Made by a program: the position numbers and the translations under genes. From contig NW_026941605.1 of NCBI RefSeq assembly GCF_032062105.1, positions 1-64,000 of the forward strand: 64,000 nt of DNA, read 5' to 3'. This stretch comes from Saccostrea cucullata. Taxonomy: Eukaryota. The notes under the pieces were generated by a model. It made no database searches. It was not told where the DNA came from and was given only the letters and a program-made list of their open reading frames with translations. Positions 1 to 14,959 of the stretch are shown here, piece by piece. Within the stretch, counting starts at the first letter, position 1. Every line of letters begins with the position of its first letter.

Positions 1-573
1 GCTCCAGATCCCGAGATGGATCAACAAATCATTCAAAGTGTGAATAAACCCATGCAAAGAAAAGCTGAATTATTATTAAATCATTTAAAGAAAACCAACG
101 TCTTGACTTGGGATAAAGACGGAGAAATCAGTTATCGAGGTCAAAAAGTACCCGATTCTAACATTGTGGATTTAATGGCTGAAAACATGAGAACCAGATC
201 CTTGAAAAATCGTCCGGTGCCTAAAGGATTAGATGAATTTGCTCAAGCTTTAAAAGAGACCCGTACTCCCATGGTTTACTTGCAAAATCGAGACCTTATA
301 AAAGCCATGCAGAAACCAGGAAAAATCAGTACTCCTAAAGGGGCTTTGAGTGACGACGACGACGAAGAGAGCGGATTTCAGGATGCTTCCTCTTCTTTTT
401 TGACCCCTATTAGTCGACCTGTAGAGGCAAGATCAAGGGTGTTAAAAAAATTCACACCTAAATATAGTCCCTATCGAGCCCAAAAGCAATTAAAAGCCCA
501 AGAAGAAGAAGCCAATAAGAAGAAGAAATTAGAACAAATCGAGGAAAATTGGCTTCATTTGCCTAAGACATGA
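1..573 (+). CDS. Polinton conserved hypothetical protein, 5'-partial (copy of 6752-7621)
   Basis: Near-identical to the C-terminal ~185 aa of the 289-aa ORF; the frame is open from the window edge. Confidence 0.85.
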   Translation, partial: APDPEMDQQIIQSVNKPMQRKAELLLNHLKKTNVLTWDKDGEISYRGQKVPDSNIVDLMAENMRTRSLKNRPVPKGLDEFAQALKETRTPMVYLQNRDLIKAMQKPGKISTPKGALSDDDDEESGFQDASSSFLTPISRPVEARSRVLKKFTPKYSPYRAQKQLKAQEEEANKKKKLEQIEENWLHLPKT

Positions 574-1669
574 AGAAGAAGAAGAAGAAGGAAGTGGGGA
601 CATTTCAACAGAGATTTATTACGATCCCAAGAGAGGGTATGGAGGCATACAGACTTTGTATCGTCAGGTCAAAAGTCTGGGACATAAGATTTCTTTGAAC
701 ACCATACGAGAATGGTTAAAAGAGCAAGATACCTATACCTTACATAAACCCATTCACCGAAAATTCCGGAGACAACAGACCAGAGTGACGGATATAGACG
801 AACAATGGCAATTAGATTTAGCGGATGTGTCCAGTTTAAAGAAACATAATGACGGTTATACCTTTTTATTGTGTGCCATTGACGTCTTATCTAAATATGC
901 ATGGGTGGTGCCTTTAAAACAGAAAACGGGGAAAGAAATGATTCGAGGATTACAAGAGATTTTCCGACAAGACGGTCGACGTCCCGTCCGCATTCAATCG
1001 GATCAAGGCAAAGAATTTACCAATCGAGAATTCTTACAGGCGTTTAAATCCATTCATTTCTTTACCACTCGCAATACGGACACCAAAGCCAGTATCGTGG
1101 AACGATTTCAGAGAACCCTCAAAGCACGCATGTGGCGATATTTCACTCGGAATAAAACCAGACGGTATTTAGAGATCTTACCGGATTTAGTGTATGCTTA
1201 CAATCATACCTATCATCGCAGTATCCAAAGAACCCCAGCTCAAGTGAAGCCCTCGAATGTGTTAAAAGTCTGGAAAACTTTATATGGGGAAGAATCATCA
1301 CCTAAACCAAAACCCCCCAAGTTTAAAACAGGAGATAAAGTGCGCATCAGTAAAGCTAAACGCACTTTTGAAAAAGGATATTTACCGAACTGGACCACGG
1401 AAATATTTACCATTGCTCAACGAGTCCCCGGTCGGTATCCTTACGTGTATCGAGTACAAGATTATAACCAGGAGGAATTAGAAGGGACTTTTTACGAGAA
1501 AGAATTACAACAGATCATTAAAAAAGACGACGTGTACGAAGTGGAGGAAATCTTGGGGTATAAAAAGCGACGAGTCGGGAAGAAAATCATTCAAGAAGTC
1601 AAAGTCCGGTGGAAAGGATATCCCCCTAGTTTCGATTCATGGATTCCCCAAACGGATCTCATCAAATAA
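570..1669 (+). pseudogene. INT: Polinton integrase + chromodomain, copy B, 1-nt deletion near 597-600
   Basis: ATG at 570 overlaps the upstream TGA (ATGA). gtggggacatt is one base short relative to copy A; the downstream frame 656-1669 is intact (DLAD, SDQGKEF, VERFQRTLK, VRWKGYPPSFDSWIP). May be a homopolymer error. Confidence 0.8.
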
Positions 1670-1902
1670 CACCTCATTGGAAATGTTGTGGAGAGAATAT
1701 TCCTCGAGAAGAAATTGTGTATTTTGCACAATTATTCATTTGTATTTCCCTCATCATCACCAGTGTGGTCATGTTAGCTTTACACGATTCTAATCGAGAA
1801 TATTGGATGGTCTGTGTGAGTTCTTCGGTCGGTTACATCATGCCTAGTCCTACCATGATACATCATACCCCTAGGGTCAAGAAGACCAATTCACCCAGTT
1901 AA
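1639..1902 (+). CDS. Small Polinton membrane protein, copy B
   Basis: 87 aa with two hydrophobic segments; near-identical to 5428-5694. Confidence 0.75.
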   Translation: MDSPNGSHQITPHWKCCGENIPREEIVYFAQLFICISLIITSVVMLALHDSNREYWMVCVSSSVGYIMPSPTMIHHTPRVKKTNSPS

Positions 1903-2002
1903 TCCCGGAATCTAAAAATAGATACACCCCTCTATATAAAAAGGAGACACCATAACCCTAAGAGGATCATTTCTGATCTGAGTGAGGGACAGAGCACACA
2001 TC

Positions 2003-2470
2003 ATGGATTTTTTAAGCTCAGAGTATCGTTGGAAAATAGTAGAACCTGAAGGGACTAGTCACAAAGGAGAATGGATGAAAAACAAAGAGACATGTATTCA
2101 AGATTTCTTTGATAAGAATCCAGGACAAACAGGTCTCAATGAAATCTACCTGTATAAGAGATTCAAGTTACCGCACCGCCAAAGAAGCAAACAGATGCTC
2201 TTAATAGGACCCAAATCACCTAAATATGGAGAATTCAAATGGAAAGTCAATTACGTCTTGGCTCACCGAACACAGGGACCCGAGAAGACTTGGATTCATG
2301 GAAAATGGATGAAAAAAGCCAGAGATTGTATAGAAGACTATTTGAAAGAAGTGGTCGTAAAAGGATACGATATCATGGACTGTGCTTGTGAAACAGACTA
2401 TTTGTACATGAGGAGACCTTTTCCCATACAAAAAGAACTGAACAGAAGTTTTGAATGTTTGTTATTATGA
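2003..2470 (+). CDS. Polinton ORFan Y1 (internally duplicated Trp-rich domain), copy B
   Basis: TATATAAAA at ~1934, ATG at 2003 and AATAAA at ~2505; homologous to 4871-5329. Confidence 0.75.
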   Translation: MDFLSSEYRWKIVEPEGTSHKGEWMKNKETCIQDFFDKNPGQTGLNEIYLYKRFKLPHRQRSKQMLLIGPKSPKYGEFKWKVNYVLAHRTQGPEKTWIHGKWMKKARDCIEDYLKEVVVKGYDIMDCACETDYLYMRRPFPIQKELNRSFECLLL

Positions 2471-3095
2471 TGTTCTTGTTATTGTTGTTGTTGTTGTTGT
2501 TATGAATAAAAAAATAAAAAGAAAAAACCAAAAAAATTCTAGTGTTGTTAGTTATTTTTCCCTATATACACACAACTAAACGCTCTATATACACACAACA
2601 GAGCGCTCTATATACACTAGCTTTGTCATGATGACGTCACAATCACGGATTTGAATCGCTGCCAAGTATTTACCTGTGTAGTCAGCATAAAAAACGTAGG
2701 TCTATCGTATTGATGCACATAATTTTTTGCACAAAAACAGGTATAAAAAGGTATCGCAAAGGTGCACACGGCTCACTAGCAGGTATATAAAGCGGAGCTG
2801 GGAGTACCCTGCACATTATTTATTTGTGGTATATGTACTTTTGTGTGTGATTTAAAAAATAAAAATTTAAAAAAAAATAAAATAAAATAGAGCACCAGGA
2901 ATTATAAGAGAATTAAAATGGGAAATAAATTGCGTGTGGCTTGGATTGTAGAAAAGAAAATTTATGCTGACTACACAGGTAAATACTAACCTGTGGTTGG
3001 AAAAAGAGTGAAAGGAATTGAGAAAGCAGAAGTATATAAAGCTAGCTGGGAATGTAGAGAAACACTGTTAGCAATGAAGCCTCCTCTTCTGTAAT

Positions 3096-14590: not shown

Positions 14591-14614
14591 GAGCCGAAAG
14601 TCGGAGAAAAGCCG

Positions 14615-14733
14615 TATTTATACAGTGGATGACGTCACAATGCATAGGTAAGCATATTTTTTGCACACGGCCCTAAACAAACTTGAATCGCTGCCAAGTA
14701 TTACCTGTGTAGTCAGCATATTTTTTTGCACAC
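14615..14733 (-). promoter_or_regulatory. pPolB promoter: TATAAATA, CRE, 38-bp motif
   Basis: TATAAATA at 14615-14622, TGACGTCA at ~14630, 38-bp motif at 14683-14720, and GCATATTTTTTGCACAC twice. Confidence 0.6.
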
Positions 14734-14735
14734 AT

Positions 14736-14937
14736 CTGCACTCTCTTGAACCACCTATCCCCCACAGGGGCTGCACTCTATTGACCCACCTATCCCCTCC
14801 AGGGGCTGCACTCAGTTGACCCACCTATCCCCCCACAGGGGCTGCACTCCCTTGACCCATCTATCCCCCACAGGGGCTGCACTCAGTTGACCCACCTATC
14901 CCCCCACAGCCCCAAAAGTGCACTCAGTTGACCCACC
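14736..14937. repeat. Subterminal ~35-bp tandem repeat (6 units) of the Polinton TIR
   Basis: CTGCACTCAGTTGACCCACCTATCCCCCACAGGGG units starting at 14736, 14771, 14806, 14842, 14877 and 14918. Confidence 0.9.
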
Positions 14938-14959
14938 CGGCTAGGCCCCTTATACTACT

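Follow-up and report, generated by a model that had tools for sequence, protein, structure and literature searches.

Gene layout of two opposed Polinton copies

The first 64,000 nucleotides of contig NW_026941605.1 of the rock oyster Saccostrea cucullata (RefSeq assembly GCF_032062105.1), here called the window, begin with two Polinton copies joined in opposite orientation (1–14959), a structure that is real at the sequence level. Copy A occupies the minus strand between 14959 and 3077 and leads from its terminus through the DNA polymerase, the packaging ATPase and the integrase to a stub of the penton gene; copy B, on the plus strand (1–2822), is an inverted second variant of copy A's genes, 92% identical to them. 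With 2.8 kb of copy B visible, the terms 'dimer' and 'capsid-less' apply within the window. Self-comparison yielded only one inverted repeat in this region, 1–2822 against 7318–4523 with 92.2% identity over 2,858 columns, and between its arms lies an asymmetric centre of 1.7 kb (2823–4522) that holds no remnant of a terminal repeat. The inverted join of two variants with the capsid half removed, as described in the initial annotation, is upheld, since arms, break points and distinct alleles are all seen. The features are listed below, where P numbers denote related proteins and L001–L020 are 20 GTDB contigs with Polinton-like integrases, which resemble eukaryotic or viral sequence wrongly assigned to prokaryote metagenome-assembled genomes (MAGs); ORF stands for open reading frame.

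1–573, plus: 3′ part of ORF289, cut by the window edge; 178/186 amino acids (aa) identical to copy A
570–1669, plus: integrase (rve and chromodomain; Pfam rve 4e-11, Chromo 1e-8), its start out of frame with the body
1639–1902, plus: small hydrophobic, transmembrane (TM)-like ORF; a homologue lies 3′ of the integrase in L001 and L012
2003–2470, plus: Y1 accessory gene, allele B; 142/155 identical to P0042 versus 125/150 to allele A
2471–2822, plus: terminator and promoter module with a 19-nt family motif (2670–2688) and a TATA box (2784); the arm homology ends here
2823–3076, no strand: junction of 254 bp, an apparent patchwork of family sequence from comparison with the element and shuffles
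3077–3263, minus: 5′ fragment of the putative penton (minor capsid) gene, 62 codons of about 325; 62/64 identical to full-length P0001
3359–3853, minus: Y1 paralogue, 164 aa; 29% identical to P0042 (E 2e-11)
4067–4516, minus: ORF149, Cys-rich, with a tentative RING-like lead (feature score 0.90 to RING clusters in the Atlas)
4523–4870, minus: promoter module with two copies of the 19-nt family motif, read from the sequence; inner end of the arm
4871–5329, minus: Y1, allele A; 149/152 identical to P0043
5428–5694, minus: TM-like ORF, from its reading frame and comparison with copy B
5664–6755, minus: integrase, intact, 363 aa, DDE motifs present; rve and Chromo matches, 98% identical to S. cucullata XP_062611537
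6752–7621, minus: ORF289 (PZ-like); a homologue precedes the integrase in L001
7618–8017, minus: basic core-protein-like gene (pVII/pX-like), frameshifted; in L012 the syntenic ORF matches Adeno_PX weakly (E 0.008)
8067–8984, minus: ORF305, basic, of an unnamed family with a conserved N-terminal part; 95 relatives at E<=0.001, none named
9030–9674, minus: packaging ATPase (A32/FtsK-like) with its own TATA box and ATG; Pox_A32 2e-6, 40% identical to the L012 ATPase
9719–10253, minus: IAP (BIR and RING), frameshifted; BIR 9e-19, the RING match covering profile positions 3–33 of 49
10370–14590, minus: pPolB (protein-primed DNA polymerase B), 1406 aa, frame open; DNA_pol_B_2 3e-57, exonuclease and polymerase motifs
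14591–14959, minus: right terminal region with the pPolB promoter, the family motif (14701–14719), 35-bp tandem repeats from 14736 and ACTACT (14954–14959)
14960–14965, plus: CATACA, candidate 6-bp target-site duplication (TSD) read from the sequence, its partner outside the window
14960–17206, plus: Gypsy pol, interrupted inside the reverse transcriptase (RT); the 3′ part is open through RNaseH and integrase

The hallmarks of a Polinton/Maverick were found, namely pPolB with catalytic motifs, an rve integrase in both arms and a packaging ATPase, whose Pox_A32 score exceeds the cut-off, and the ORFs and Pfam matches bear out the replication and integration gene set first assigned to copy A on the minus strand. 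Its order pPolB–ATPase–core–integrase–TM–penton matches that of L012, a near-complete element that also carries TBP and dUTPase genes, and IAP genes are reported in adintoviruses (PMC8502044). The pPolB N-terminus contains a 144-bp Gln/Arg-rich repeat (window 14231–14496), the Pfam search gave no hit for ORF149, and an exact-sequence look-up of eight window proteins in the protein collection returned no identical entry. 'Y1' is a label from an earlier reading of the sequence; the name PZ for ORF289 is one that we assume from its position and a motif, and the basic core-like gene is presumably pVII/pX. Copy B had been said to hold the same genes as copy A in opposite orientation, which is correct for 1–2822 but not for ORF149 and the intact Y1 paralogue: 3′ of the copy B promoter module, ORF149, which comes next in copy A, is missing, and so is the paralogue. 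With 1.7 kb separating the arms and these two genes missing in B, the element is not a near-perfect palindrome, contrary to its first description as palindromic.

Three frameshifts had been overlooked, each at a homopolymer run: at the 5′ end of the copy B integrase (frame break near 596–606), in the IAP RING (near 9778–9786) and in the pVII/pX-like gene (near 7997–8010). The shifted IAP frame runs on into the ATPase, and an apparent IAP–ATPase fusion of 407 aa was rejected as a product of this shift. These frameshifts may represent decay or consensus errors, and 4 of the 15 listed RefSeq integrase paralogues are truncated or shifted likewise.

At the right end, the terminus, CATACA and Gypsy RT flank were confirmed, with ACTACT followed by CATACA and an in-frame Gypsy ORF; the Gypsy pol frame resumes right at the ACTACT end, at about Ty3 RT residue 272 (thumb/RNaseH/integrase). 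Of the (AGT)2//(ACT)2 motif that is described together with a 6-bp TSD for Mavericks (PMC8097293), one end is present here. The last 226 bp of the terminus have no second copy in the window, and a motif block at 4608–4720, tried as a left terminal repeat remnant, was rejected as it has neither the 35-bp repeats nor the end motif. The arithmetic formerly given for the left end holds: a mirror-image end would lie 7,641 bp beyond the window and, by extrapolation, make a dimer of 22,600 bp. The parent length is estimated at about 14.9–17.7 kb from the gene sizes of the distant relative L012, and a length of 15–20 kb is given for Polintons in PMC4028283. Past the Gypsy pol lie a Cys/His-rich ORF (17394–18017) and a polypurine-tract-like run (18331–18350), which may mark the 3′ long terminal repeat.

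Penton break, missing capsid genes and junction

Copy A breaks off inside the penton. The match of a 73-aa ORF (3263–3042) to the 325-aa P0001 ends at codon 62 (nt 3077/3078), not at ~55 codons as previously stated, and about 15 nt from the break the fragment has a two-codon in-frame deletion that is absent from 7/7 members of the P0001 cluster, 6 of which are 325 aa and represent full-length pentons of the same family. The identity of P0001 as a penton is suggested by weak but concordant lines taken together: the best structural matches of its predicted fold (pLDDT 53) are capsid or penton chains with Z 6.0–7.0, which falls under the level sufficient on its own, Foldseek matched it to virophage minor capsids (E about 3e-4), and by synteny a penton homologue lies 3′ of the integrase in 12 of the 20 distant loci. 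Pfam and PDB sequence searches gave no name for the penton, folding the 62-aa fragment gave no information (pLDDT 53), and a GTDB scan with the penton yielded no locus.

In L012, the penton is followed by a 155-aa ORF, a 433-aa ORF called major capsid protein (MCP)-like by its size and position, with no Pfam hit, and a Peptidase_C5 ORF (E 3e-5). Queried with the MCP-like and Peptidase_C5 ORFs of L012 and L001, the 64-kb window returned nothing at E<=0.1, whereas queries with pPolB, ATPase, integrase and penton gave matches; a further two L012 genes of small size failed to match their counterparts in the window, so that the protease query is weak on its own. Within 1–14959 the largest unannotated gap is at most 606 bp, and 16 alternative-frame ORFs gave no Pfam hit. 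The earlier statement that no major capsid or adenain-like protease appears was confirmed for the 64-kb window, where an MCP, a protease and a full-length penton, as a complete Polinton has them, were not found.

The junction, formerly put at ~250 bp, appears to be no neutral spacer but a patchwork of family sequence. Its start resembles the AT-rich region 3′ of copy A ORF149 (score 83, 0/300 shuffles), while the same piece scored 39–55 against four other intergenic regions; given the low complexity, this match is moderate evidence. Further in, 2961–2987 is an exact 27-nt inverted copy of 2665–2691, 2992–3013 matches a 22/23-nt piece of the copy A Y1 paralogue, and 3025–3051 forms a second TATA module (each 0/100 shuffles); three other pieces were weak or non-significant, reached by 3, 16 and 41 of 100 shuffles. 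These counts come from matching the pieces against the whole element, which is fairer than picking donors after the matches were seen. A colinear Y1 remnant was considered and rejected, as the two Y1-like pieces stand in reversed order. The ATG at 3074–3076 adjoins the penton and lies 41 nt from the junction TATA, and the TATA-to-ATG spacing across nine other genes is 32–70 nt. The junction could be either an eroded and patched centre or copy B's natural accessory region cut cleanly at the start codon.

The 19-nt family motif occurs at five sites (2670, 2964, 4609, 4671 and 14701; 0.01 expected by chance), in either orientation and 5′ of TATA boxes, and is likely an early-gene enhancer.

Alleles of the arms, the family and the rest of the window

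The integrase proteins had been described as nearly the same despite silent changes, and indeed the bodies agree at 348/352 residues; of the codon changes between them, 17 are synonymous and 4 non-synonymous (dN/dS 0.066, binomial p 2.8e-8). The neutral simulation (26 changes, threshold 19) serves only for the expected synonymous share of 21–32%. Between the arms, dN/dS was 0.75 for ORF289, 0.33 for the TM ORF (p 0.16), 0.89 for Y1 and 0.41 pooled. The claim that the arms diverged under selection is retained for the integrase, and for Y1, ORF289 and the TM ORF purifying selection was not significant.

That the divergence preceded the joining is borne out by alleles of both arms occurring in other family copies, and such allele sharing is stronger evidence of prior divergence than dN/dS. 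Y1-A and Y1-B each match another family protein (P0043 and P0042, respectively) better than they match each other. The copy B integrase body is 353/353 identical to 3 of the 15 listed S. cucullata RefSeq paralogues; where the two integrases differ, the copy A state recurs in other paralogues at 4/5 positions and the copy B state at 5/5, so that private changes number none in the 353 codons of copy B and one in copy A. These paralogue counts concern 15 of the 21 members of the 90% integrase cluster, of which 16 are named; every one of the 15 is an S. cucullata RefSeq protein. Because both arms match alleles of other family members, and with the integrase dN/dS of 0.07, two separate elements were joined. 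Relatives of Y1 are mosaics of A-type and B-type segments, which implies that the variants meet and recombine, and the Polinton family, judged from its sequences, is young, multi-copy and recombining. In the GTDB integrase scan only distant relatives, 35–54% identical, were found, and no complete family copy was seen at the DNA level.

Several other possible composites were noticed among the relatives. P0045 (XP_062592029.1) combines an IAP N-terminus with a Y1 C-terminus, which points to either a further copy with an internal deletion or a gene model produced by splicing. The integrases P0181 and P0185 (XP_062595894.1 and XP_062595895.1) have consecutive accessions and different N-termini, and each comes from a 12,927-bp contig; we infer that it is one contig, probably a second two-integrase composite in S. 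cucullata. In L017:657–1920, on a 1.9-kb contig in a bacterial MAG, two Polinton integrase copies with 92% identity are joined in inverted orientation, one of them interrupted within the gene; they differ at 7 codons by synonymous and at 6 by non-synonymous changes. L017 is 1 of 20 distant loci, most of which are too short to reveal a join.

Elsewhere in the window, a second long inverted repeat (26757–29776/33460–30434) has a 0.65-kb spacer and no ORF above 111 aa; its outer 2.2 kb are 98–100% and its inner 0.8 kb 77–85% identical, related sequence occurs at 33589–34608 and 39812–40701, and it is possibly a foldback-type element or a gene-converted palindrome. Also present are a retrotransposon gag (23546–24577), a long interspersed nuclear element with PHD, endonuclease and RT in split frames (52955–57043), two transposase-like pieces (47562–47906 and 57237–57758) that we take to be Harbinger-like, two fibrinogen-C-like exon pieces (38872–39231, with a Pfam hit, and 42822–43127) and a 166-bp satellite array (49286–50657) whose monomers are also dispersed.

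Origin of the join and comparison with known systems

The account that we hold the likeliest, without calling it probable outright, is that two nearby opposite insertions lost their centre by deletion, leaving a one-off rearrangement product. Two members of the young multi-copy family would have come to lie close together with their capsid ends facing each other, through a double insertion at one site, insertions at neighbouring sites, or nesting. Nesting, a case overlooked at first, could only be of B inside A, because the Gypsy sequence directly adjoins the copy A terminus, and capsid genes of copy A might then still lie to the left of copy B. The long inverted repeat would then have been unstable, and error-prone repair of the centre would have removed both capsid halves asymmetrically, cutting A in the penton and B in the accessory region and leaving a patchwork junction; short family pieces from both arms and the two-codon deletion near the break are what such repair might leave. 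The product could form no virions and most likely persists as a relic. We infer this order of events, the chromosomal setting and the lack of propagation from the separate alleles, the young multi-copy family, the asymmetric centre and a predicted dimer longer than the estimated parent. Comparable events are on record. In Drosophila, inverted tandems occur along with nested inversion junctions (PMC5932611), most inverted transgene junctions show asymmetric deletions (PMC8701086), and in C. elegans Polinton remnants form clusters with inversions (bioRxiv 2024.01.15.575659).

Several points weigh against this account. Two insertions and a deletion are needed within a short time, the integrases being almost free of private changes and the pPolB and Gypsy frames still open; one pre-integration event is more economical, because both arms and the Gypsy element look very young. 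The Y1 mosaics show that variants meet and recombine, the junction could equally be copy B's natural second promoter, its 41-nt TATA-to-ATG distance falling within the 32–70 nt of the other genes, and the left end and the empty site lie beyond the visible sequence.

A join before integration is therefore a possible, clearly less likely, alternative, in which template switching by the polymerase, or end joining, fused two variants that were replicating within the same nucleus, and the capsid-less product with two pPolB-side termini was inserted once by the integrase into the Gypsy RT. A single event would account for the youth of both arms, variants of the family do recombine, copy A keeps an open pPolB, the ATPase, an intact integrase and the terminus, and full-length pentons of the family exist. 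In its strong form, which we consider improbable, the composite was copied and re-inserted as a unit with capsids of complete copies. P0181/P0185 and L017 are two hints which suggest that inverted joins recur, and recurrence would fit a class of defective replicons and ordinary palindrome decay alike; that oyster Polintons repeatedly yield capsid-less two-variant inverted molecules, replicating and integrating as units with borrowed capsids, is in our view unlikely. P0181 and P0185 may lie in either orientation, however, and L017 may be a chimera. The predicted 22.6 kb against a parent of 14.9–17.7 kb, the three frameshifted genes, and arms without the homogenisation that repeated panhandle replication might bring about also speak against a join before integration.

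An assembly chimera, in which reads or contigs of two paralogous or allelic copies were joined, is rather unlikely. The family is high-copy and near-identical, the homopolymer frameshifts may be consensus errors, a hint of imperfect polishing, and truncated or shifted copies also occur among the listed RefSeq paralogues. However, the window contains no N, and the join lies between non-homologous sequences, where misjoins by overlap assemblers are uncommon. A fold-back read artefact would predict identical arms, whereas these differ by natural alleles at the low integrase dN/dS, and the 254-bp patchwork has no second occurrence in the window.

Whatever the origin, a function like that of Mu killer, with antisense or double-stranded RNA silencing the family, is doubtful. 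The arms are convergent, the junction TATA (3033) would drive antisense transcription into the penton fragment and the Y1 paralogue, the first plus-strand AATAAA to follow being at 3928, and Mu killer is itself a partial inverted duplication that silences MuDR (PMC3440606). Against this, a separate TATA box is present for most genes and an AT-rich terminator for several, and read-through from the penton would meet a minus-strand AATAAA at 2824, before arm B, so that a long hairpin transcript is not predicted. Strict copy-back, in which one genome was copied back on its own nascent strand and which had been proposed at first, has the right geometry, one end duplicated inverted and the other half lost, but is very improbable. 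Barring a later recombination that exchanged one whole arm, it is refuted for the arms in view, as these are different alleles existing independently (Y1-A/P0043, Y1-B/P0042 and the integrase states) and 17 synonymous versus 4 non-synonymous changes (p 3e-8) are not expected of neutral decay after duplication.

If it is a relic, the locus would be a clear example of the decay of a young Polinton family and a marker of recent family activity in rock oysters. The junction provides a single-copy tag; should it recur at other loci or in free DNA, this would be evidence that animal Polintons multiply outside the chromosome, infect together and give rise to derivatives dependent on a helper, with a bearing on whether Polintons are true viruses. 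Capsid-less composites, if real, would make up a germline-fixed class of defective Polinton genomes, a trace of variants co-replicating outside the chromosome. A literature search, covering mostly titles and abstract openings, found no description of a capsid-less inverted two-variant Polinton, and a catalogued case may exist.

Among known systems, the copy-back or snap-back defective viral genomes, as outlined in PMC13506859, are alike in the inverted end duplicate, the loss of structural genes and the need of a helper. Here, by contrast, two templates are involved in place of complementary arms from one template, the product is chromosomal and predicted to be longer than its parent, and interference would be hypothetical. 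Defective-interfering genomes are described as benefiting from being shorter than the parent (PMC13506859), and the 22.6 kb predicted here against the estimated 14.9–17.7 kb, both extrapolated, argues against such a role: a genome longer than its helper would gain nothing obvious in replication and might fail to be packaged. Mu killer of maize (PMC3440606) is likewise a partial inverted duplication of an autonomous element, from which the present locus differs in that no read-through hairpin transcript is predicted and silencing would be hypothetical. The capsid-less or non-autonomous Polintons of PMC4028283 also have no virion genes; nine such elements given there are without protease and ATPase as well, whereas here the ATPase and a penton stub are kept and the join is abrupt.

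With Polintons/Mavericks (polintoviruses, adintoviruses) the locus shares pPolB, an rve integrase with chromodomain, an A32-like ATPase, the penton, the ACTACT end motif, a candidate 6-bp TSD, an IAP accessory gene and a single-strand layout as in L012; the inverted second variant here takes the place of the major capsid, the protease, the far terminal repeat and all but a stub of the penton. In the inverted transposable element tandems (PMC5932611) and the C. elegans eri-6/7 Polinton rearrangements (bioRxiv 2024.01.15.575659), adjacent opposite copies with a junction deletion are reported, and this locus is likewise made up of two independent copies facing opposite ways, the join having cost them terminal sequence. 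It differs from them in having no host gene visibly involved and in that its deletion removes the virion module and keeps the replication and integration genes.

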